DNA of 32,000 bases, taken from assembly GCF_000011805.1 (NCBI RefSeq), contig NC_006841.2. One strand, given 5' to 3'. Each line of letters starts with the position of its first letter. Position 1 is the first letter of the stretch. The notes beneath the pieces are model-generated. The model had not been told where the DNA came from. It saw only the letters and a list, made by a program, of their open reading frames with translations, and ran no database searches. Below, piece by piece: positions 10,717 through 24,666 of the stretch. The position numbers and the translations under genes are program-made. This stretch comes from Aliivibrio fischeri ES114. GTDB lineage: Bacteria > Pseudomonadota > Gammaproteobacteria > Enterobacterales > Vibrionaceae.

Positions 10717-12450
10717 TTAAGCTGCTGCAGCTTCTTTCGCATCCGCTTTATTTTTCAAGAAAGCGTAAGTGAAGCCTGTTACTGCTGTACCCGCTGCAAT
10801 GGCTACCAAATACATAAATACTGGCGTGATTGCGTTTGGAATAAGTAGAACAAATAGACCACCGTGTGGAGCAAGTAGTTGAGCGCCAAACAACATAGAC
10901 AGACCACCAGTTAATGCACCACCCGCCATACAGCTTGGGATAACGCGCATTGGATCTTTCGCTGCAAATGGAATCGCACCTTCAGAGATAAAGCATAAAC
11001 CAAGCACAAATGATGCTTTACCTGCTTCACGCTCACCCGCTTCAAACTTATTCTTAGCAAGGAATGTCGCTAAACCCATACCTAGTGCAGGAACCATACC
11101 TGCTGCCATGATAGCCGCCATTGGACCGTATGTTTGTGAAGCTAGAAGACCTACACCAAATGTATATGCAGCTTTGTTTACTGGACCACCTAAGTCGAAA
11201 CACATCATACAACCAAGAATCACACCCAGCAATACAGCGTTAGTTGATCCCATGTTGTTTAGGAATTCTGTTAACGCTGACATGATGCCAGATACAGGAC
11301 CACCAACGATGTAAATCATCACCAGACCAGTAAATAAACTCGCCACAAATGGAATGATTAAGATTGGTTTTAGCGCTTCCATTGATTGAGGAAGAGATAC
11401 TTTATCCGCAATGAATTTAGCAGAGTAACCCGCAATGAAACCAGCAGCAATACCACCAAGGAAACCGGCACCTGTTGAGCTAGCCAACATACCGCCGATT
11501 AGACCCGGAGCTAAACCAGGACGGTCTGCAATCGAGAACGCGATAAAACCAGCAAGAACAGGGATCATTAACGCAAATGCAGCGCCACCACCAATATCCA
11601 TTAAGGTTGCAGCAATAGTACCAGGCTCTTTAAACGCTTCAATACCAAATACAAAAGATAATGCAATCAACAAACCACCCGCGATAACAACAGGAAGCAT
11701 GTGTGATACCCCTGTCATTAGGTGTTTGTACATGCCTTTTTTCTCTTCAGTTTGAGAAGATTGTGTATTACCAGACGCTTGGAAAACCGTCGCATCAGCG
11801 AAGGCTTTATTCATCTCTTGTTCTGTTTTCTTTAATGCTAAACCAGTGCTTGTTTTATATAGACGTTTACCATTAAAACGCTCAAGAGGAACTTCAATAT
11901 CAGCTGCGATAATCACCAGATCCGCCTCTGCGATTTCTTGATCCGTTAATTGGTTTTTCGCCCCCACAGAACCACGAGTTTCTACTTTAATAATGTGACC
12001 TTGGCGTTTACCTTCTTCTTCTAACGCTTCAGCAGCCATGAAGGTATGTGCAACACCCGTTGGACACGCTGTGATCGCTACAATTTTTTTAGCGCCCGTA
12101 TCGTCAGCAACCACTATTGATGTCACTTCAGAAGCGGTTAATTCTTTTGCGCTGTTCGCTGCGTTTTCTAACCACGCTTGCGTATCTGTCGTACATTCCG
12201 AAATAGTGCCTGTATATACTTTTTTACCCACAAAACGAGCGGTATCTACTTCTGTATTTGCAGCGATGATAATAGCATCTGCACCATCAATCACTTCTTG
12301 GCTTAATACATCAACAGGTAACACGCTTGATTGGCATTCAATCGACGCAGTCCAATTTAATTTTTTTGCAGCTTGTTCTAATAAACCCGCTGCAATAATG
12401 CTGTTTGCTACACCACTTGGGCATGCTGTTACGATAGCTATGTTTTTCAT
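10717..12450 (-). CDS. fruA: PTS fructose-specific EIIB'BC component
   Basis: Two IIB-like repeats (IVTACPSGVANS; AITACPTGVAHT) followed by a polytopic IIC domain. Sits in fruB-fruK-fruA order. Confidence 0.93.
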   Translation of the reverse strand: MKNIAIVTACPSGVANSIIAAGLLEQAAKKLNWTASIECQSSVLPVDVLSQEVIDGADAIIIAANTEVDTARFVGKKVYTGTISECTTDTQAWLENAANSAKELTASEVTSIVVADDTGAKKIVAITACPTGVAHTFMAAEALEEEGKRQGHIIKVETRGSVGAKNQLTDQEIAEADLVIIAADIEVPLERFNGKRLYKTSTGLALKKTEQEMNKAFADATVFQASGNTQSSQTEEKKGMYKHLMTGVSHMLPVVIAGGLLIALSFVFGIEAFKEPGTIAATLMDIGGGAAFALMIPVLAGFIAFSIADRPGLAPGLIGGMLASSTGAGFLGGIAAGFIAGYSAKFIADKVSLPQSMEALKPILIIPFVASLFTGLVMIYIVGGPVSGIMSALTEFLNNMGSTNAVLLGVILGCMMCFDLGGPVNKAAYTFGVGLLASQTYGPMAAIMAAGMVPALGMGLATFLAKNKFEAGEREAGKASFVLGLCFISEGAIPFAAKDPMRVIPSCMAGGALTGGLSMLFGAQLLAPHGGLFVLLIPNAITPVFMYLVAIAAGTAVTGFTYAFLKNKADAKEAAAA

Positions 12451-14886: not shown

Positions 14887-15864
14887 ATGACATTAGATGA
14901 AATAGCCAAACTTGCTGGCGTCTCCAAAACCACTGCAAGCTATGTCATCAATGGTAAAGCGCAGAAATATCGCATCAGCGAAAAGACACAATTAAAAGTC
15001 ATGGCAGTGGTTGATGAGCACAATTACCGCCCTGATCATGCCGCATCTGCATTGCGTGCAGGCAGTAGCCGTTCGTTTGGATTAATCATTCCTGATCTTG
15101 AAAACACCAGTTACGCCAAACTTGCTAAACTTTTAGAATTCAATTCAAGAAAAGCCGGTTATCAAATTTTAATTGGATGCTCTGATGATGATCCAGAAAC
15201 AGAAATGAATGTCGCCCACGCACTTATTAGCCGTCGTATTGATGCACTATTCGTTGCAAGTTGCTTACCTAATGGCAGTGATTACTACTTAGGTATTCAA
15301 GAAAAAGGCACACCAATTATTGCCATTGACCGTTCATTAGATGACGAGCATTTTGGTTGTGTGATCAGTGAAGATTTTGATGCGGCTTACGAGTTAACTA
15401 AATCGGTAGTTAATGAGAATGTAAAATCAATTGGCTTAATTGGTGCGTTACCAGAGCTGAATATTTCTCGTGAACGTCAATTAGGATTTGAAGCAAAGGC
15501 CAAAGAGAAAGGTTTAGCTAGCATCATGGGGTATGGCGAACACTTTAATAGTGAATCAGGCAAAGCAATTTTTGAACAATGGATAAAAAATGACACCATT
15601 CCCGATGCGATTATCACAACCTCTTATATTTTGCTTGAAGGGATTTTAGATGTACTCATTGAAAAGCCTGAGTTAATGACCAGAATAAAATTAGGCACCT
15701 TTGGTGATAACCGTCTATTGGATTTCTTACCCATTAAAGTTAACTCTCTACCGCAACAATTTGAGTTAATCGCAGACAGTGCCTTAGCATTGGGGTTGAA
15801 TGCCTCAGCAAAACGTTATCAAGCAGGAATAGAGTTAATTCCTAGGAAGATTGTTATTCGCTAG
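14887..15864 (+). CDS. fruR: Catabolite repressor/activator Cra (FruR), LacI family
   Basis: N-terminal HTH MTLDEIAKLAGVSKTTASYVINGKA..YRISEKT plus a periplasmic-binding-fold domain. Divergent from fruBKA. Confidence 0.92.
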   Translation: MTLDEIAKLAGVSKTTASYVINGKAQKYRISEKTQLKVMAVVDEHNYRPDHAASALRAGSSRSFGLIIPDLENTSYAKLAKLLEFNSRKAGYQILIGCSDDDPETEMNVAHALISRRIDALFVASCLPNGSDYYLGIQEKGTPIIAIDRSLDDEHFGCVISEDFDAAYELTKSVVNENVKSIGLIGALPELNISRERQLGFEAKAKEKGLASIMGYGEHFNSESGKAIFEQWIKNDTIPDAIITTSYILLEGILDVLIEKPELMTRIKLGTFGDNRLLDFLPIKVNSLPQQFELIADSALALGLNASAKRYQAGIELIPRKIVIR

Positions 15865-15908: not shown

Positions 15909-16547
15909 TTACCAAATACCAACGGGTACACCGTGCTCATCAATATAAGCTTGCGCTTCTTCGCTTAACTCTGGATAAACAAAATCATCAGCAACTTTAT
16001 ACTCTGCGGCTTGTACTTTGAATTGAAGTTCATTATCAAAACATCGATTATTTAAAAAAACAGAAATCATTCCATCAGGAGCTAAACCTAATAAAATATT
16101 ATTCTTATACGGTCTAAGTTTGTTACTTTTACCACACCGTATATCATGATATTCTCGCATTTTATTTCGCATATCGTCGGAAATCCTAATTGCTTTATCG
16201 TAAGTGACGTTGTTCGCCAATGAATGCCAACGAATATAAACTAATCCTGGTAACTCAGAACTTTGAATAACATAACCTGAATGATATCTTTCTCTTCCCT
16301 CCCAAGAGTTTGGATTCTTAGAAAACTTAGTATACTTTGTAACCATCCCTCTCCAGCCCCCTTGTTTTGTTTCACTTGTTATCAATAATATATCAATGTA
16401 TGCGGAGTAATATTTAGGGGCGACCGTAGATACTGTCCATTCATTTAACTGTTTCGATTTAATTTGGCTATTTGTTGAACAAGCAGAAACGAATAAACAA
16501 AAAATAATGAAAAAAGACTTATGAATGTTGCTCACAATACTCACCAA
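15909..16547 (-). CDS. Putative T6SS immunity lipoprotein, copy 4 (intact, most divergent)
   Basis: Lipobox FVSAC. Shares the RWHSLAN..TYDKAIRISDD.R.KMREYHDIRCG core with copy 1. No ATG is available; the start is TTG 16547, GTG 16544 or GTG 16535. Confidence 0.7.
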   Translation of the reverse strand: MVSIVSNIHKSFFIIFCLFVSACSTNSQIKSKQLNEWTVSTVAPKYYSAYIDILLITSETKQGGWRGMVTKYTKFSKNPNSWEGRERYHSGYVIQSSELPGLVYIRWHSLANNVTYDKAIRISDDMRNKMREYHDIRCGKSNKLRPYKNNILLGLAPDGMISVFLNNRCFDNELQFKVQAAEYKVADDFVYPELSEEAQAYIDEHGVPVGIW

Positions 16548-17216
16548 ATACCAACGGGCACACCATGCTCATCAACATAAGATTGTGCTTCTTCGCTTAA
16601 CTCTGGGTAAACAAAATCATCAGCGACTTTATACTCTACTGCTTGTACTTTGAATTGAAGCTCATTATCAAAGCATCCACCATTAAGAAATACAGATATC
16701 ATTCCATCAGGAGCTAAACCTAATAAAATATTATCTTTATATGGGAGTAATAAATCATAATAGCCACAGCGTATATCGTGGTATTCACGCATTTTATTTC
16801 GTATATCTTCTGATACTTTAATCGTTTTATTATATGTTTTCTTGTTCGCTAATGAATGCCAACGAATATAAAAAGAAGCAGGTAATTCGTCACTATTAAT
16901 TGAATACCCTGAATGAAACCGCTCACCACCATCCCAACCTAGAAGGGCTTTCAGATTCCATATGTTGTGTGTTTTCCCTATCATTCCCCTTCATCCAACC
17001 TTTTTCTCCTCTCCACAATCCATAGCTATCCCAATTTAAGAATATATCCCCTACTTGACCTGGTGTGTAACTATTTCAGGGAGGAAGAATAGTCGCACAA
17101 TCGGTCCACTACATCTTAATTGTTTGAGATTTTAACTTTGAGGTTCCAGTTGAACCAGATGGAAACTAATTAAACCAAAAATAATGAGTAGAAATGTCTT
17201 ATGAATGTTGCTCACC
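16541..17216 (-). pseudogene. Immunity lipoprotein paralogue, copy 3 (5' half disrupted by many small insertions)
   Basis: The 3' ORF at 16541-16984 is intact and lacks a signal peptide. Upstream homology to copy 2 continues but out of frame: 259 nt here (16938-17196) against 214 nt in copy 2 (17627-17840). The leader VSNIHKTFLLIIF runs into stop codons. Confidence 0.75.
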
Positions 17217-17220
17217 ATTT

Positions 17221-17868
17221 TCACCAAATACCGACGGGCACACCATGCTCATCAACATAAGATTGTGCTTCTTCGCTTAACTCTGGGTAAACATAATCAT
17301 CAGCGACTTTATACTCTACTGCTTGTACTTTGAATTGAAGCTCATTATCAAAGCATCCACCATTAAGAAATACAGATATCATTCCATCAGGAGCTAAACC
17401 TAATAAAATATTCATCTTTATCATGGGCAGTAATAAATCCATAATAGCCACAGCGTATATCGTGGTCATTCACGCATTTTATTTCGTATATCTTCTGATA
17501 CTTTAATCGTTTTATTCATATGTTTTCTTGTTCGCTAATGGAATGCCAACGCAATATAAAAAGAAGCCAGGTAATTCGTCACTATTAATTGAATACCCTG
17601 AATGAAACCGCTCACCACCATCCCAACCTAGAGGGCTTTCAGATTCCATTGTGGTTTTTCCTATCATCCCCCTCCATCCACCTTGTTTCTTCTCTCCAAC
17701 AATCAATAAGATATCCCCTCTTACTGTGTAATATTTAGGAGAGATAGTCGAAATCGTCCACTCATCTAATTGTTGAGATTTAACTTGAGGTTCAGTTGAA
17801 CAAGAGGAAACTAATAAACAAAAAATAATGAGTAGAAATGTTTTAGCATTAATCATGATTATTACCAA
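17221..17868 (-). pseudogene. Immunity lipoprotein paralogue, copy 2 (nine +1 insertions)
   Basis: Fragments 17512-17868 (signal peptide, lipobox LVSSC, likely ATG at 17856) and 17221-17469 are in the same frame. Between them are nine single-base insertions relative to copy 3. Confidence 0.8.
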
Positions 17869-18479
17869 ATGCCTGTAGGCACGCCATGTTCATCAACATA
17901 AGCTTGTGCTTCTTCGCTTAACTCTGGGTAAACAAAATCATCAGCAACTTTATACTCTACGGCTTGTACTTTGAATTGAAGCTCATTATCAAAGCATCCA
18001 CCATTAAGAAATACAGATATCATTCCATCAGGAGCTAAACCTAATAAAATATTATCTTTATATGGGAGTAATAAATCATAATAGCCACAACGTATATCGT
18101 GATATTCACGCATTTTACGTCGAATATCATCAGAAATCCTAATTGCCTTATCATAAGTAACTTTATTCGCCAGTGAATGCCAACGAATATAGAGTAATCC
18201 TGGTAACTCGGAATCCTCTATAGTATATCCAGAGTGATAACGTTCAGCTCCACTCCAATTTAAAGGACCCAAGGATTCTGTAGTATAATTACTAACTAAA
18301 CCAGTCCATCCTCCACTTTTATTCTCTCCCGTAATAAGTAGGATATCCACAACTGCTGTATAATTTTTAGGTGATATAGTTGAAACAGTCCACTCATCTA
18401 ATTCTTGAGGTTCAGCTTGATATTCAGTGGAACAAGAGGAAACTAATAAACAAAAAATAACTAAAAGATATTTATTCAA
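17862..18479 (-). CDS. Putative cognate T6SS immunity lipoprotein, copy 1 (intact)
   Basis: MNKYLLVIFCLLVSSC has a lipobox. The TTG start overlaps the effector stop (TTGA at 18476-18479), with AGAAAGGA RBS about 8 nt upstream. Located immediately 3' of the lipase gene. Confidence 0.8.
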   Translation of the reverse strand: MNKYLLVIFCLLVSSCSTEYQAEPQELDEWTVSTISPKNYTAVVDILLITGENKSGGWTGLVSNYTTESLGPLNWSGAERYHSGYTIEDSELPGLLYIRWHSLANKVTYDKAIRISDDIRRKMREYHDIRCGYYDLLLPYKDNILLGLAPDGMISVFLNGGCFDNELQFKVQAVEYKVADDFVYPELSEEAQAYVDEHGVPTGIW

Positions 18480-19750
18480 AATGGAAATCCTTTCTGTTTT
18501 TTATGAGGCCAAATTTGTCTTTCACGCTCTCCGTATTGATTAATTTTAGGTTTCATAGTGTACATACCACTATCTAAAGCCCAGTGATCTGAACAATGGA
18601 CATAATGTTTTAAAACATAAGATGATAAAGACTCTGGTACTTCTTTTATAATAGATAAGCCTGAGATATTTTTTGAATGATTATAATTGTCTTCATAAAA
18701 TGAGTAGAGTTCTGCTAACCTTCCTCCAAAAATCAAAGTATTTGTTGAAAGTGGAACATTATTATCCATGGCTATCTTATGCATTAAATTAAATGAAAGA
18801 AATTGAAGATCTGGTGAAATATCCCTTGTCATTGATAATGTTGCTCTATATCGATAATGCTTATTGGTAAGTCTTGTTTTAACAACATTGTTTTGTGAAA
18901 AACAACTTGAAGAAACAACATAAGGTAGAAACTCTTGTTTCATCTCTTCTATTTTTTCTTCTGCTCTATTATTAAAGTTTCTAGTTGCATGCCAATCGTC
19001 CTCACTAATAGTACGTAGATATGGTTTCATAATTAATACGCTATCTTTTGGATCTTTGTAACCACCACCAATATCAGAATGAACACCAAGCAACGCTAAT
19101 TCTTGATGTTCAGGAGCAACCGAATTTAGCGCAAAATTATCTCTACACTCATGATGAGCGGTAAAATGCACCACTTTTTTTGCAATATCTTTAGGTAAAT
19201 ATAAGTTTATACCATGATTATTTTCATCTGTTGTATCGAGTAAATCTTTAATACAACCAATTGCTGCAACTGTATCGTATAACCCAATAAAATTAATACT
19301 TACTTTAGAAGAATCATTTAATTGTAATTTCTCATACACTAAGCCATCCACTTTTTTATGAATTTCATTAGCAAAATGCCTTGCTGTAGCTGCACCTCGA
19401 CTAAAACCAAAAATATCAAAGACCAACTTTATAAGGTGAATGTTAATACCTGATTTATTTAATTCTAAAAGAATATCATCAATAGCTTTCTTTGAAATCG
19501 CAATAACACCACGATCACCAACCCCTAAACCCATATCAGGAAAACGTTGATCTTCTTCAAGAGCTTTAGTGCCAACACCTTCCATATAAATCTTATGCAT
19601 CGTTTTGACATCTGATATATATGATTTAAATAAACGTCCTATATTTGTAATCGAATTATCGTAACTTCCTCGATTTTTTTCTGAAAATTCGAATAATTCT
19701 TCGCATATATTTTGGGTTTCATCAGAAATAAACGTTTCATCTTCGCACAT
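18476..19750 (-). CDS. C-terminal fragment of the effector (DUF2235 alpha/beta-hydrolase lipase domain, from the first ATG)
   Basis: GFSRG nucleophile elbow with Asp and His motifs. The conserved FFDGTGNN strand lies upstream of this ATG, so the fragment is N-terminally incomplete. Confidence 0.6.
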   Translation of the reverse strand: MCEDETFISDETQNICEELFEFSEKNRGSYDNSITNIGRLFKSYISDVKTMHKIYMEGVGTKALEEDQRFPDMGLGVGDRGVIAISKKAIDDILLELNKSGINIHLIKLVFDIFGFSRGAATARHFANEIHKKVDGLVYEKLQLNDSSKVSINFIGLYDTVAAIGCIKDLLDTTDENNHGINLYLPKDIAKKVVHFTAHHECRDNFALNSVAPEHQELALLGVHSDIGGGYKDPKDSVLIMKPYLRTISEDDWHATRNFNNRAEEKIEEMKQEFLPYVVSSSCFSQNNVVKTRLTNKHYRYRATLSMTRDISPDLQFLSFNLMHKIAMDNNVPLSTNTLIFGGRLAELYSFYEDNYNHSKNISGLSIIKEVPESLSSYVLKHYVHCSDHWALDSGMYTMKPKINQYGERERQIWPHKKQKGFPF

Positions 19751-19930
19751 AGCACCAAAATCAGCATTAAACGAGTTGTTTCCTGTTCCATCAAAGAAAA
19801 CACCAAAGCGAATTTCTTGCTTAGTAAAATCCAGAACTTCAATTACATAACTCTCGTTATGAACAAAAGTAACATTCCCTAGCTTCCCTTTATTATGCTC
19901 TTCAAGAAATTGATAATCCGGATTATTACT

Positions 19931-20278
19931 TCATAGATCTCCCAATGTTGCATGTAGGTACTTTTTACTTTGGTTTTGTTCTGGACCACCCAGAGCTTCT
20001 TTTGCAAACTCTGGAACTAGCGATGTTTCTGAATCTAATCGCTTATCTCGGTCTTCAACAACATCTATTAATGTCTGAGTATCTATAGTAACTTTTACAG
20101 GACCACTCGCAATATCTTCAATATGATTTATTCCAGAAGTCAAATTTACAGTCTGAATAGCTCCGGAAGCATCTTCGATAGTGATATCAAAACCTTCATA
20201 AGACTGATTATTTTCATCTCTAAAATCTAATTCAATCCAGTTTTTACTCTTTTCACAGGGAATACAACGATCACTCAT
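19931..20278 (-). CDS. N-terminal fragment of the effector (115 aa, uncharacterised module)
   Basis: ATG overlaps the DUF4123 gene stop (ATGA at 20275-20278). Ends at the in-frame TGA. Contains C-x2-C near the N-terminus. I recognise no family. Confidence 0.6.
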   Translation of the reverse strand: MSDRCIPCEKSKNWIELDFRDENNQSYEGFDITIEDASGAIQTVNLTSGINHIEDIASGPVKVTIDTQTLIDVVEDRDKRLDSETSLVPEFAKEALGGPEQNQSKKYLHATLGDL

Positions 20279-21075
20279 ATCTGGGTTCCTTGTTGTAATT
20301 CAGATCGAGTTACTAAGTTCTCTACCTGCTTAACGGTTTTTATTTGTGCGCTATCTAAATACCAGGCTTCATAGATGTCGTGACTTTGTTGTTTACTATC
20401 TTTAATTAGCATGTTCATTGAATATGCTTCTAATTCTTCATTTTCAAGACGATGCGCTCGCCCCTCTATAAGATGGTTAATTAACTGTGATTGTATATCT
20501 GAATTTTTTTCGTATATCTCTTTCATTAAAGAAGGAAGACGCTGCCACGCTAATCGCTCAGTAATCCATGCATGTCTTTCAACTGAATATGATGAATGGT
20601 GTTTTTCTATCTTCCACCACGGCTCTGATTTATAACTTACTTGAGAGGCGCTATTTTCGTAAGAACACAAAGAACCGACTGACGATATAATTTCTATACA
20701 CTCTGAACTACCAAGAAATAACGATAATTCTTTCTGGTTAAATGATACAAGCATGGCTTCTAAAACAACTCGGTCATAATAACGAAATAAAACTAATTCT
20801 CCATCAAGACCTGCAAACGTTAAACTTTTCCAATGCTGTATATGTGTTTCAATATCATCAGAAAAATAAATACGAAAGCCTGATGGTTTATTGGCAAAAT
20901 AAGCTAAAAACTCTTTAGGTGGATATGGCAATAACCATGGACCAATCTCTTTCTGTGCATCAAACTCAGTATCTAAATACAAAGGAAAAGCATTACCACC
21001 ACCATAATGATAAAAGCGCTCAATAACCTCTTTATCTTCAAGAGGATTAACTACCAAATAGCTCTGTTCATGCAT
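20275..21075 (-). CDS. DUF4123-family T6SS effector adaptor/chaperone (Tap/TEC-like)
   Basis: DUF4123 hallmarks: YLVVNPL..., FPLYLDT, IGPWLLPYP, LFRYYDRVVLEAML. ATG at 21075 with GGAGGGG RBS just after the vgrG TAA; the ORF track's start at 21114 overlaps vgrG. Confidence 0.85.
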   Translation of the reverse strand: MHEQSYLVVNPLEDKEVIERFYHYGGGNAFPLYLDTEFDAQKEIGPWLLPYPPKEFLAYFANKPSGFRIYFSDDIETHIQHWKSLTFAGLDGELVLFRYYDRVVLEAMLVSFNQKELSLFLGSSECIEIISSVGSLCSYENSASQVSYKSEPWWKIEKHHSSYSVERHAWITERLAWQRLPSLMKEIYEKNSDIQSQLINHLIEGRAHRLENEELEAYSMNMLIKDSKQQSHDIYEAWYLDSAQIKTVKQVENLVTRSELQQGTQI

Positions 21076-21079
21076 TCTA

Positions 21080-23116
21080 TTATTCCCCTCCGCAAGGTTT
21101 AACAGCAATGGCATTCAATTTTTGAGCGTTCTCTAATGCATTTTGAGGGGCTTTCATTGGTAAAGATCCCGCCTGCTCAACTTCTTTTCCCATTGGTAAT
21201 ACGGCTGTTTTTCCTGCATAACCACTGCCACTTCCCGCGCTTCCGCCAGAGTTTAGGTTAATTACAGAACCAATAAGATGAACGCCTGCTGGGTCAATTT
21301 TTACAACACTACCGCCGGCTTTAATGGTGATTTCAGTACCTGCTTCTAACACTATTTTTTGACCTGATTTTAAATGCAATTCAGAGCCGATCTCTTCTAG
21401 CTGTTTTTTGCCTACTTTTTTATGTAAAGAGCCATTAACTTGATGATGAGCGTCGCCTTTAATCGTTTCAAACTGACTTCCATTAACGGTGGTATGACGA
21501 TTGTTTTTTATCTCATTAAACTGATTGTTATGTACAATCTTATGTTCATCATTGAAGACTTCTATTGTGTGATCATGTTGGATCTGGCTATCCATGTCTT
21601 TTGCTGCATGAATATAAATTTGCTCTGCGTCTTTTTTATCTTCAAAGCGCAGTTCATTAAAGTTTTCACCACCTAATGAACTTGAGGTTTTAAAGGTACT
21701 GCGTGTTTTATGCTCAGGTAAGGTATAAGGTGGTTTATTGGCACCGTTATAAAGCGCTCCAGTAATAATGGGCTTATCTGGATCACCATGAATGAAACTG
21801 ACAATCACCTCGTGTCCTATCCTAGGTAAAATAAACTGCCCATATTGGTTTCCAGCCCAGCCCTGAGATGTTCGTAACCAACAACTTGTCTTTTCATTTC
21901 CTTGACCATTTCTATCCCAATGAAACTGTACTTTTACGCGACCATGCTCATCACAATATATCTCTTCGCTTTCAGGACCTGTTACGATAGCGGTATCAAC
22001 ATTATGGATCAGTGGCTTAGGTTGAGTAGTAAGCTTAAAAGGAACTATCCATGGCATACAACGAAAACTGGCATTATATTCAGAGCCACCATCAGCCAAT
22101 TCTTCAAGTACCTGTGGCTGACGCCCGCTATGAAACACTTGAGTTAGCAACCAAGTATCGTTCCACTCAGGGTTAGGATGTTCTTGAATAGGTTGGAAAT
22201 ACCCTGCGGTCAATTGTGCGCAGTCGCTCTCGCCGAAAAGTTCAATACTCCTAGCTCTTTGTTGCTCTAGTCGTAATGATGCTTGTTTTGTAGCTTTTTC
22301 TGATGAGGTTTGATTAATTGGGTATTGATAATGTTCTAATGCTAACTCAGAGGCACATTCACCTTGATCATCGTTCTGCATAATCCCTGCAGGAAGTCGT
22401 GTTGGCGTTTCAAAATTAAAGTCTCTTACTGATATTTTACCGACGCTTACTTGCTGCTTTTTCATTAAAGAAGTAATGGTGTTGCCATCTTTCGTCATTC
22501 CATTATCAGCAACAACGCACAAGGGAGGTAATTCGGTATATATTTCAGGTCCATCCGAAATAATCTGTTTAACTCCACTCTCTGTATGTTCAAAATAATA
22601 TACTAAGCCTTCTTCAGACAATAAGCGCTGAACAAACATGGCATCGGATTCACCGTATTGAACACAGTATTCTCTTGGTTCATGAGTATTAAACAGCTCA
22701 ATAGTAAAATGATTACTCAAGATCCCCGCTTGTTGATAAATCTCGGTAATGATGTCTGGTACGGTTTTATTTTGAAATATTTGATAATTGGTTCGATAAT
22801 TGAGAAGCGCAAAAATAGGAACCAGACTTAATCGGTAGGTACTGTTTCGAAAAGAAGTGCTGATTTGCTCTATCGATTCAATAATGCCATGCACATACCT
22901 TGGCGCAAAATCGGGATTATTGTCATGATGCAATGTCAAGCAAGCTGGCAATTGTAGCCATTGAGCTAAATTCAATTCAGGCTCTTCACAAATAAAAGTA
23001 ACATCAAACTGATAGTTTTCTCCCAACGTTTCTTGCCCTGAGAATGAATACACTTGAAGTGGAATATCTATCGTTGCAACGTTAATTTCAAATTGAGCTT
23101 GGTTTGCATCCTGCAT
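21080..23116 (-). CDS. vgrG: T6SS spike protein VgrG (short C-terminal tail, no enzymatic extension)
   Basis: gp27-like N-terminal domain, gp5-like OB segment (GRVKVQFHWDR...CWLRTSQGWAG..YG..ILPRIGHEVIVSF..GDPDKPIITGALYN), beta-helix repeats, Gly/Ser-rich tail. Confidence 0.93.
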   Translation of the reverse strand: MQDANQAQFEINVATIDIPLQVYSFSGQETLGENYQFDVTFICEEPELNLAQWLQLPACLTLHHDNNPDFAPRYVHGIIESIEQISTSFRNSTYRLSLVPIFALLNYRTNYQIFQNKTVPDIITEIYQQAGILSNHFTIELFNTHEPREYCVQYGESDAMFVQRLLSEEGLVYYFEHTESGVKQIISDGPEIYTELPPLCVVADNGMTKDGNTITSLMKKQQVSVGKISVRDFNFETPTRLPAGIMQNDDQGECASELALEHYQYPINQTSSEKATKQASLRLEQQRARSIELFGESDCAQLTAGYFQPIQEHPNPEWNDTWLLTQVFHSGRQPQVLEELADGGSEYNASFRCMPWIVPFKLTTQPKPLIHNVDTAIVTGPESEEIYCDEHGRVKVQFHWDRNGQGNEKTSCWLRTSQGWAGNQYGQFILPRIGHEVIVSFIHGDPDKPIITGALYNGANKPPYTLPEHKTRSTFKTSSSLGGENFNELRFEDKKDAEQIYIHAAKDMDSQIQHDHTIEVFNDEHKIVHNNQFNEIKNNRHTTVNGSQFETIKGDAHHQVNGSLHKKVGKKQLEEIGSELHLKSGQKIVLEAGTEITIKAGGSVVKIDPAGVHLIGSVINLNSGGSAGSGSGYAGKTAVLPMGKEVEQAGSLPMKAPQNALENAQKLNAIAVKPCGGE

Positions 23117-23183
23117 AATGATCCTTCCTAATACACGACTCTACTTTCATCGCGTTAAACACGGTGGCTTAATTAAATAAGCT

Positions 23184-23244
23184 AAAACGCAAAAAGGGAG
23201 AGCCATCATAAACAGCTAGGGGTGCTTATGATATTGACTCTCCC
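23184..23244 (-). terminator. Intrinsic terminator/attenuator hairpin between hcp and vgrG
   Basis: Minus strand reads GGGAGAGTC-aat-ATCATAA-(14-nt loop)-TTATGAT-GGCTCTCCC, followed by TTTTTGCGTTTT. Confidence 0.7.
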
Positions 23245-23258
23245 GAAAATGCGAGCGA

Positions 23259-23777
23259 TTACGCTTTCATTGCTGTACGCCAGTCATCGTTACCTGATGT
23301 ACCTGCGACTTCGTGCGTCCAATCAATGGCACGATATGTCATAAATACATCTTCTAGGTGTGTGAAATGCGCTTGTGATGGGTCTTGACAGTTAGGCATT
23401 GACGCTGTGATATCAACGATAATCGCATCGTGTAGAACTGTTGTGAAATAGTGCTCTTGTGTACCTGTTGCAGAAGTACGGTACCACTTAATCTCAACTT
23501 TAGGCAGTTTCTCACCAGACGTTAATGCGTTATACATTAGTGGTGATGCCTTATCGAATACTTTTGTAATACGTACAGGCTTATGCACACGTTGACCAGT
23601 AGGCTGACCTGATTGAGGATCACGAGGTAATAAAACCTGATGTTCAAATCCTTGAACTAATACTTCGTCTTCATGACCTTCTTGGTAAATGTTACCTACT
23701 GAATCTTCAGTAAATGTACCTGCAGTAATTAGTCCCTGTTTTTCGCCTTCAATGCGCATATAAGCTGGAGTTGGCAT
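23259..23777 (-). CDS. hcp: T6SS tube protein Hcp
   Basis: 172 aa. MPTPAYMRIEGEKQGLITAG...GHEDE.LVQ.F.H....P.DPQSGQPTGQRVHKP... closely parallels Vibrio cholerae Hcp. AAGGAAG RBS. Confidence 0.95.
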   Translation of the reverse strand: MPTPAYMRIEGEKQGLITAGTFTEDSVGNIYQEGHEDEVLVQGFEHQVLLPRDPQSGQPTGQRVHKPVRITKVFDKASPLMYNALTSGEKLPKVEIKWYRTSATGTQEHYFTTVLHDAIIVDITASMPNCQDPSQAHFTHLEDVFMTYRAIDWTHEVAGTSGNDDWRTAMKA

Positions 23778-23825
23778 ACTTTCTTCCTTTTAAACAATAG
23801 TAAATGAATAATTCCCTATCCCTAT

Positions 23826-23841
23826 TGCCAAAGGTGTGCCA
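23826..23841 (-). promoter_or_regulatory. Sigma-54 (-24/-12) type promoter for hcp
   Basis: Minus strand reads TGGCAC-ACCTT-TGGCA against consensus TGGCAC-N5-TTGCW. GG and GC are correctly spaced. The -12 element is about 50 nt upstream of the hcp ATG. Confidence 0.6.
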
Positions 23842-24015: not shown

Positions 24016-24666
24016 TTAATTAAGTAAATGAGCATAAAGGTGACTCACTTTTTCACTGCATTTAGGATTCGCTTCCATTCTTTTATAATGTGCGATGGTT
24101 TTATGTAAATACTCTTGGTGCTCGGTATTACTCAAGTTCCACATTTCAGAACCTATGCAATGTAATGGCTGTGTTGCTCGGTTGCTCACATGCAATACTT
24201 CATAAAATCGTTGGTTTTCTTTTACAAGCGTTTCAGAGATCAAACCAAAGCCCATTTCAATTAATTCTCGTCTTACCCTGTAATTATGCAAAACTGGGCA
24301 AAGAATAAACTCTAAATCAGCATCTTTATTATACTGATAAATAGACCGTACTAACTCAATAAGTAAATCTCCACCAACACCAGCAATAATAATTAAATTT
24401 TTAGAATCATTAACTAATGGAAGTTGCGCCACATCCATACAATGAACCTGCCATTGGGGTTGAATATCAGCGGCGTATTTATTAAGTCGAGTTTCTAGCT
24501 CTACCATTAAGCTATCTACCACATCCACAAAATGAATTACGCTTTTGGGTTGTGAGGCTAATAAAGCCATACCTAACTGGCCATGGTCACAACAACAGTC
24601 CCAAATATGATCATAATGGGTGGTTACTTTATTTCTGATGGTATCTAAACGAGAGCTTAATTTCAT
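24016..24666 (-). CDS. TrmK-like SAM-dependent tRNA (adenine-N1) methyltransferase family protein
   Basis: N-terminal MKLSSRLDTI...IWDCCCDHGQLG resembles the TrmK/DUF633 pattern (MKLS.RL......D.G.DH..L). Length of about 216 aa fits the family. Confidence 0.6.
   Translation of the reverse strand: MKLSSRLDTIRNKVTTHYDHIWDCCCDHGQLGMALLASQPKSVIHFVDVVDSLMVELETRLNKYAADIQPQWQVHCMDVAQLPLVNDSKNLIIIAGVGGDLLIELVRSIYQYNKDADLEFILCPVLHNYRVRRELIEMGFGLISETLVKENQRFYEVLHVSNRATQPLHCIGSEMWNLSNTEHQEYLHKTIAHYKRMEANPKCSEKVSHLYAHLLN

Follow-up and report, generated by a model that had tools for sequence, protein, structure and literature searches.

The 32,000 nucleotides of the squid symbiont Aliivibrio fischeri ES114 analyzed here (contig NC_006841.2; referred to as the window) contain the chromosome-II type VI secretion (T6SS) auxiliary cluster of this strain, which extends from VF_A0945 to about VF_A0954. 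The cluster is located on the minus strand and is organized in the order of a sigma-54-type promoter, hcp, vgrG, a gene for a DUF4123 adaptor, a gene for a lipase of the Tle1 family (DUF2235) and a tandem array of genes for DUF2931 lipoproteins. The products encoded in the region are exact matches of ES114 proteins (VF_A0945-0951 and the Hcp protein AAW88024.1). In the lipase gene, the reading frame is interrupted by a nonsense codon. The module as such has already been described as a V. fischeri auxiliary cluster (PMC6130350, PMC9972734), and what our analysis adds is the dead effector, a probable artefact in the reference sequence and a map of the cargo across strains. The papers on V. fischeri auxiliary clusters that we consulted (PMC6130350, PMC9972734) mention neither the nonsense codon of ES114 nor the state of the immunity array. 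A literature search on the locus tags VF_A0949-0954 returned no paper, and the text of Metzger 2019 contains no gene identifiers.

An earlier note on this DNA, made from the sequence, had placed hcp, vgrG, the DUF4123 gene, the lipase gene and the lipoprotein genes in this order between fruR and a trmK-like gene, and the domain matches agree with this assignment. The overlapping stop and start codons that it reported, ATGA at 20275-20278 and TTGA at 18476-18479, are indeed present. The gene for the adaptor is located directly 3' of vgrG and is followed by the effector gene and then by the immunity genes, while hcp and vgrG adjoin each other, apart from a tssA-M core, as is characteristic of auxiliary clusters. 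Among the other open reading frames (ORFs) in the 32-kb window, domain searches identified neither tss core nor PAAR domains and also none of an integrase or a transposase, as had likewise been claimed; these ORFs code for ordinary housekeeping and transport proteins. The description of the region as an auxiliary hcp-vgrG-adaptor-effector-immunity module without core genes in the window was thereby upheld. What did not stand was the view of a working cargo module in the ES114 genome, because the effector gene is not intact.

The gene for the Tle1-family phospholipase effector (18476-20278, minus strand; PF09994) has a frame of 601 codons, in which codon 116 is an in-frame TGA (19931-19933) that splits the gene into ORFs of 115 (VF_A0951) and 424 amino acids. 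The family assignment in the earlier note, a DUF2235 lipase, was confirmed by the match of the 424-residue ORF to PF09994 (62.2 bits, as compared to the Pfam cut-off of 27) and by the closest solved structure, which is Tle1 from enteroaggregative Escherichia coli (EAEC; 6SJL/6SKI, E = 1.3e-38), but the gene is not the single intact ORF that was assumed. Codon 116 is TGG (Trp) at four other loci (L001, L002, L004 and L005), and a Trp is found at this position in all relatives of 600 residues. In the strains with a VgrG protein identical to that of ES114, the tle gene codes for 600 amino acids. The truncated products are recurrent: the exact 424-residue protein was identified in 74 blocks of the sequence collection and the 115-residue protein on 85 contigs (NCBI and Logan, from separate runs), and there were no differences across the tle gene in two other assemblies (L003 and L006). 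Since the same allele was recovered in so many records, the stop at codon 116 is real.

The catalytic motifs are all located 3' of the TGA and are intact. A GFSRG motif is present at amino acids 291-295, and in the alignment with the EAEC structure (6sjl_D) Ser293, Asp335 and His400 fall on S197, D245 and H310. The catalytic roles of these three EAEC residues were reportedly described by Flaugnatti and colleagues in 2016. In addition, the A. fischeri protein has an N-terminal region of its own of approximately 135 residues, with no Pfam match. The first in-frame start codon (ATG, GTG or TTG) after the TGA is at residue 177, downstream of an FFDGTGNN motif at amino acids 161-168. The 115-residue product would carry none of the catalytic domain, and a product restarted at residue 177 would be without the N-terminal region and also without the FFDGTGNN element, which forms a strand and loop of the hydrolase fold. 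Neither fragment should thus be an active, loadable lipase, and most likely no lipase is delivered by the module in ES114.

The DUF2931 (PF11153) array downstream of the lipase gene consists of four tandem units of approximately 632-680 nt each, which continue on the minus strand down to position 15909. The first gene, tliA (17862-18479; VF_A0949, AAW88019.1; PF11153, 1.6e-47), is intact and codes for a protein of 205 amino acids with the lipobox LVSSC. The last gene, tliD (15909-16547; VF_A0945, AAW88015.1; PF11153, 2.7e-48), is likewise intact and codes for 208-212 amino acids, depending on the start, with the lipobox FVSAC. Both proteins match DUF2931 over its full length, with 162 and 164.5 bits, respectively, and profile positions 1-182 of 182. 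The N-termini with export signal and lipobox, as read directly from the sequence, are MNKYLLVIFCLLVSSC, MINAKTFLLIIFCLLVSSC and ...FIIFCLFVSAC. In the tliB unit (17221-17868; fragments VF_A0948 and VF_A0947), the 5' half is intact, while the 3' half has 9 extra bases and several frameshifts. In the tliC unit (16541-17227; VF_A0946), the 5' half is scrambled, with 50 extra bases, and the 3' half is intact. Of the four lipoprotein genes proposed previously, the four tandem units were hence recovered, but only two of them (17862-18479 and 15909-16547) are intact in the record.

We compared the array to that in an independent assembly of the strain, GCA_001029395.1, which shows no mismatches over flanks of 13.5 kb and 5.5 kb and yet has only three units, corresponding to approximately 679 nt fewer. 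As compared to the middle copy in that assembly, unit B has 9 extra bases, no missing bases and 2 substitutions, and unit C has 50 extra bases, 2 missing bases and 14 substitutions. The damage in the two units is found in complementary halves, and the remaining halves are identical to the middle copy. When merged, B and C yield an intact protein of 208 amino acids that is close to the intact proteins of other strains. A colinear and intact array of three genes was also identified in another strain (L099); its middle gene matches at 195 of 208 residues and its last gene at 207 of 208. Furthermore, 14 artefactual expansions of repeated DNA have been documented in version 1.0 of the ES114 genome (PMC2330054). 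The tli region is not among the loci named in that study; Mandel 2008, in which five ES114 pseudogenes are listed, does not mention it. Because of the three units between identical flanks, the insertion-biased and complementary damage, the intact merged gene and the documented expansions, we consider it very likely that units B and C represent an artefactual expansion in the reference assembly; the excess of extra bases would then be due to overcalled read ends rather than to natural decay. The true array in ES114 is likely to consist of three intact immunity genes.

The alternative explanation, that the units at 17221-17868 and 16541-17227 are genuine pseudogenes from a decayed fourth copy, is the strongest of the rivals, although we regard it as unlikely. 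The two units are part of the deposited reference and are annotated as VF_A0946-0948, strains genuinely differ in copy number, with 1 to 6 copies, fragments of 87-93 amino acids occur in other arrays, and the sole other assembly of the strain has an oddity of its own, which is discussed below. Decay is, however, difficult to reconcile with 59 extra bases as compared to only 2 missing bases and 16 substitutions, distributed over complementary halves of adjacent copies of the same gene. Moreover, the removal of one unit restores an intact and common allele, and the 14 documented expansions are from the very same genome. Among the three genuine tli paralogues, the synonymous divergence (dS) is 1.35-2.5 over codons 25-140 and 0.19-0.59 over the last third, which suggests that the 3' ends have been homogenised; such homogenised ends may also provide the homology for changes in copy number. 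A scan for internal sigma-70 promoters that could serve the immunity genes gave 32 matches as compared to 34.1 expected, the best of which is located at 18995-18968.

At the other end of the cluster, the sigma-54-type promoter motif TGGCACACCTTTGGCA (23826-23841, minus strand), with GG at -24 and GC at -12, is located 49 nt upstream of the ATG of hcp. It conforms to a TGGCAC-N5-TTGCW-like -24/-12 element and has a single match in the window, as compared to 0.03 expected; the simpler pattern TGGC-N8-TGC occurs at a chance-level frequency, so that specificity is only obtained with the full motif. Of 18 A. fischeri loci, 17 carry the motif at this same place, and close variants were found in L095 and in other Aliivibrio species. 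Position 23841, at which the earlier note had ended the module, is the outer edge of this element. The hcp gene (TssD; 23259-23777, minus strand; AAW88024.1) codes for a protein of 172 amino acids (PF05638, 7.5e-35; TIGR03344, 1.6e-67) that is present in identical form in 404 blocks of the collection, with ES114 and MJ11 as the named strains.

A strong hairpin followed by a run of U residues is located between hcp and vgrG (23191-23244, minus strand; -30.7 kcal/mol, z = -6.05). None of 200 shuffled sequences folds as well, and the structure is followed by UUUUU. Its long loop and its inner stem kept it from being picked up by a simple terminator scan. To judge from the predicted fold, it is likely an intrinsic terminator or attenuator, and in the latter case it may set the ratio of Hcp to VgrG.

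The vgrG gene (TssI; 21080-23116, minus strand) codes for 678 amino acids with the domains Phage_GPD, Phage_base_V and Gp5_trimer_C as well as TIGR03361, and the identical protein was found in 66 blocks. The DUF4123 adaptor of the Tap/Tla1 type (20275-21114, minus strand; PF13503, 2.1e-24) has 279 amino acids, or 266 if the alternative start at 21075 is used, and the calls in other strains are of either 266 or 279 amino acids. The names Tle, Tli and Tap were not obtained from NCBIfam, in which no family matched.

We also compared the organization of the site across species and strains, by a scan anchored on FruR that covered a single genome from each species and by exact look-ups of the VgrG and Hcp proteins. 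The left flank is formed by fruR (LacI family; 14887-15864, plus strand), which is a conserved anchor, and the right flank by the gene for the trmK-like methyltransferase (24016-24666, minus strand), which is the same neighbor in all A. fischeri contexts. The hcp gene and the segment for VgrG residues 1-650 are present at the site and are nearly invariant in every A. fischeri context that was retrieved, and they are thus not accessory within the species, contrary to what the earlier note implied. They are also found at the site in A. logei, A. sifiae, Aliivibrio sp. 1S175 and A. finisterrensis A33. No module is located beside fruR in several other Aliivibrio species or in any of the Vibrio and Psychromonas matches. 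An empty fruR-trmK site was not found in this comparison; the Aliivibrio species without the module are also without trmK beside fruR. The synteny check that had been proposed for this interval came out as predicted, with cargo that differs between strains and species. In L091 (GCA_038993745.2, 7113-7762), the trmK-like gene is broken into ORFs of 83 and 140 amino acids, and in Aliivibrio sp. EL58 a FruR fragment of 73 residues with 97% identity (L013, 15959-16177) is located approximately 5 kb downstream of the intact fruR gene.

Two types of cargo were identified. The lipase type consists of a VgrG of 678 amino acids, tap, a Tle of 600 amino acids and 1-6 DUF2931 genes, and the alternative type of a VgrG of 698 amino acids, a different DUF4123 protein, an effector of 385-402 amino acids and small membrane proteins. 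The effector of the alternative type matches no family in Pfam or NCBIfam, and its C-terminus is rich in glycine and membrane-like. This type was observed in L007 (11041-14106), L016 (11040-13456), L093 and L095. The divergence between the two VgrG proteins begins exactly at residue 651, so that residues 651-678 in ES114 (about 21083-21166, minus strand) constitute a cargo-specific tail. Immunity genes of the other type have been kept on both sides: in MJ11 (L094, CP001133.1, 14106-16290), which is of the lipase type, the single DUF2931 gene is followed by orphan immunity genes that belong to the alternative cargo, with 96% and 98% identity to those of SR5, and an orphan DUF2931 gene is retained in a strain of the alternative type (L089, 13337-13954).

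Within the lipase type, the sequence identity to ES114 decreases along the cluster: hcp is 99-100% identical, vgrG 97-100% and tap 97-99%, as compared to 88.5-93% for tle (the L096 allele with its frameshift not counted) and 72-85% for the first tli gene. The amino acid changes in Tle cluster at residues 182-285. The relatives retrieved were confined to Aliivibrio and Photobacterium, with at least 47% identity for Tle and at least 58% identity for Tli, and the next Tle matches are fusions of PAAR and Tle1 with approximately 35% identity. An hcp-less cassette of vgrG, tap, tle (600 amino acids) and DUF2931 was observed elsewhere in metagenomic Aliivibrio-like contigs (L103, 10001-15261; L104). 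Since this is a different genomic site, the cassette moves between loci.

The mobility of the cassette bears on the second alternative, according to which the module as a whole is a recently acquired foreign island. The G+C content of the tle gene (32.4%) and the tli array (35.3%) is lower than that of hcp and vgrG (40-42%), and the hcp-less cassette at a different site in other Aliivibrio-like contigs is also in line with acquisition. The earlier note had inferred a foreign composition for the effector and immunity genes from a single 60-nt line, 18661-18720, and its counts, 17 G+C as compared to 34 in line 11461-11520, are correct. A foreign composition was nevertheless not demonstrated, as the dip is within the normal range of the window: 67 of the 533 lines of 60 nt have 17 G+C or fewer, the G+C content of the window is 37.2%, and the 4.4-kb stretch with the lowest G+C content is located elsewhere, from about 27201. 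We therefore rejected composition as a sign of foreign origin. There is no integrase, transposase or tRNA nearby, hcp and the first 650 codons of vgrG occupy the site in every A. fischeri context and in four other Aliivibrio, and it is only the cargo part that turns over, by homologous exchange. A foreign island is thus an improbable explanation for the module.

Even less probable is a fully working module in ES114, in which the lipase is made by efficient recoding of the UGA or as two functional pieces. What could be taken to speak for it is that the stop is followed by an intact GxSxG motif and by all three catalytic residues, that there is a single lesion and no elevated ratio of nonsynonymous to synonymous substitutions (dN/dS), and that a UGA decoded as Trp would give the wild-type sequence. 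On the other side are the TGA in a position where all relatives carry TGG, the restart at residue 177 with loss of FFDGTGNN, and the report that ES114 does not kill other V. fischeri strains (PMC9972734). Selenocysteine was rejected as the meaning of the TGA, both because the relatives have TGG and because the 77 nt downstream fold like shuffled sequences (z = 0.06), with no structure resembling a selenocysteine insertion sequence. The proposal that the stop is a sequencing error in the reference, with an intact gene in the real strain, is almost certainly wrong: there are many point miscalls in ES114 v1.0 (PMC2330054), but the two products recur in the 74 blocks and on the 85 contigs from separate runs, and L003 and L006 have no differences.

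The dN/dS ratio on the ES114 branch is 0.11-0.44, which is not above that of the intact alleles, and the TGA is the sole lesion. Taken together, these two observations indicate that the change from TGG to TGA is recent. Relaxed selection on the ES114 effector was considered and rejected, since dN/dS is not elevated and there is no trace of long-standing decay. No intact allele of the ES114 Tle type with more than 90% identity was found in the protein collection. In several strains, the effector is annotated with 424 amino acids in GenBank and 600 amino acids in RefSeq on contigs of equal length (P0055/P0056, P0054/P0057, P0049/P0062), and the truncated ES114 model is probably the source of the short start in the 424-residue GenBank models. 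In another A. fischeri strain (L096; GCA_001640525.1, 11500-13310), Tle is called with 500 amino acids on account of a 1-nt insertion near codon 500, which is due either to a separate inactivation event or to a mistake in the assembly.

Previous studies have identified three auxiliary hcp/vgrG/DUF4123 clusters in MJ11 and two of these in ES114, from which the T6SS2 island is absent (PMC6130350). Auxiliary cluster 2 in FQ-A001 has the organization hcp1-vgrG-DUF4123, in which hcp1 has the same sequence as the hcp gene of T6SS2 and is redundant with it (PMC9972734). For hcp1, sigma-54 sites and dependence on rpoN have been reported, as shown for hcp and hcp1 in FQ-A001 (PMC9972734). Based on the gene order, the sigma-54 site and the abundance of the Hcp allele in 404 blocks, the ES114 locus most likely corresponds to the auxiliary cluster 2 (hcp1) of this literature. 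Like the locus described there, the ES114 cluster has the order hcp-vgrG-DUF4123 and a sigma-54 site upstream of hcp in a strain that is negative for T6SS2, and the copy in MJ11 likewise lies between fruR and trmK (L094). None of the V. fischeri effectors had been characterized by 2023 (PMC9972734).

In a strain with an intact module, the RpoN-dependent sigma-54-type promoter would drive the production of much Hcp, and the hairpin after hcp would probably reduce read-through into vgrG, tap, tle and tli. The DUF4123 adaptor would load the Tle1 phospholipase, with its Ser-Asp-His residues, onto the C-terminal tail of VgrG, which is specific to the strain, the spike would be fired by a T6SS core from another part of the genome, and the lipase would attack the membrane lipids of the prey from the periplasm, while the DUF2931 lipoproteins would protect sister cells. 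The roles of the families in this scheme were taken from Tle1Vc/Tli1 in V. cholerae (PMC10395195) and Tle1/Tla1 in P. aeruginosa (PMC13133936). That the module must rely on a core located elsewhere, as the earlier note had argued, agrees with the literature, which places T6SS1, with 11 core genes and neither hcp nor vgrG, in all strains, including ES114 (PMC9972734). T6SS killing of E. coli by ES114 is induced by TfoX (PMC6618264). A second VgrG of ES114 is encoded on chromosome I, in a cluster of vgrG, DUF4123, VasX_N (1086 amino acids) and two TsiV2 genes that contains no hcp (L100, 8001-15630). This cluster adjoins genes for heme uptake. If the two auxiliary clusters reported for ES114 (PMC6130350) are the only ones, and the other is without hcp, then the hcp gene in the window is the only one in the strain, and T6SS1 would depend on the locus described here. 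The ES114 module would thus still supply Hcp and VgrG to the T6SS1 core, and its anciently diverged immunity genes would be kept against the Tle1 variants fired by T6SS2-positive conspecifics. We infer from this that ES114 keeps the locus as a source of Hcp, VgrG and immunity and not as a means of attack.

Taken as a whole, a known auxiliary cluster in which the lipase has been knocked out, Hcp, VgrG and immunity have been kept and the array contains an assembly artefact is in our judgment the probable explanation for the region. Several points weigh against it. A review places hcp1 and auxiliary cluster 2 on chromosome I (PMC9972734), in conflict with the location of the hcp-vgrG-DUF4123 cluster with the sigma-54 site on chromosome II in both ES114 and MJ11. 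In the exact look-up of Hcp, all 10 of the 10 places returned were the auxiliary locus, with no context of the T6SS2 main cluster. VasH, which normally serves as the sigma-54 activator of hcp, is listed for the T6SS2 cluster alone (PMC9972734), and as ES114 lacks T6SS2 the hcp promoter may be poorly active in this strain. In the assembly GCA_001029395.1, two copies carry a duplication of the 5 nt TAAAG that was not found anywhere else, and this assembly is therefore not a clean witness for three copies. Finally, UGA is the leakiest of the stop codons, and it is possible that reading by near-cognate tRNA-Trp yields a trickle of full-length lipase with the wild-type residue.

A bolder view of ES114 as disarmed but shielded can only be put forward tentatively. 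According to this view, ES114 has lost T6SS2 and the lipase but has kept its sole hcp gene for T6SS1, which would act with the VasX-type cluster on chromosome I, the three Tli alleles would constitute an acquired-defense array against lethal conspecifics in the light organ, and read-through of the UGA would provide a trickle of lipase. ES114 is the standard prey strain in V. fischeri T6SS research.

The closest parallel outside of the genus is Aux-1 in V. cholerae (hcp-1, vgrG-1, tap-1, tseL, tsiV1), to which the earlier note had compared the module. The gene order and the sigma-54-dependent hcp promoter are shared, and the variant in strain E1 has the same Tle1/DUF2235 and Tli1/DUF2931 families and an extra DUF2931 gene behind the cognate one (PMC10395195). 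The genomic site is different, and only in ES114 is the effector dead. DUF2931 proteins serve as immunity proteins to Tle1 in V. cholerae, where neutralization by Tli1tox- has been demonstrated (PMC10395195). The exchange boundary in the 3' end of vgrG and the distal retention of immunity genes from displaced cargo are features in common with the orphan immunity arrays in V. cholerae (Kirchberger 2017, PMC5361080), although the A. fischeri array is mainly composed of paralogues from one family, with 1-6 DUF2931 genes and anciently diverged N-terminal parts. The catalytic domain is homologous to that in the EAEC Tle1-VgrG complex (6SJL/6SKI), with the Ser-Asp-His triad aligned, and a DUF4123 adaptor is also used in the Tle1-Tla1-Tli1a system of P. 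aeruginosa (4O5P; PMC13133936). In both the P. aeruginosa system and the array studied here, a second, pseudogene immunity gene is located beside the cognate one (PMC13133936). The N-terminal region of approximately 135 residues distinguishes the A. fischeri protein from Tle1 in both EAEC and P. aeruginosa, and the immunity family in P. aeruginosa is DUF3304 rather than DUF2931.

The module itself is a textbook auxiliary T6SS cluster that has already been mapped for V. fischeri, and it is the state of its genes in ES114 that has consequences. With the lipase gene as a nonsense pseudogene, T6SS1- or TfoX-dependent killing must be due to effectors other than the lipase, for example the VasX-like protein encoded on chromosome I, and the toxin genotype is no simple guide to how sensitive ES114 is to lethal strains. 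VF_A0946-VF_A0948 probably do not exist as annotated, which matters for the design of immunity deletions and for pan-genome counts. Beyond ES114, the locus provides a clean second example, outside of V. cholerae, of the exchange of cargo at the tail of VgrG with retention of orphan immunity genes.

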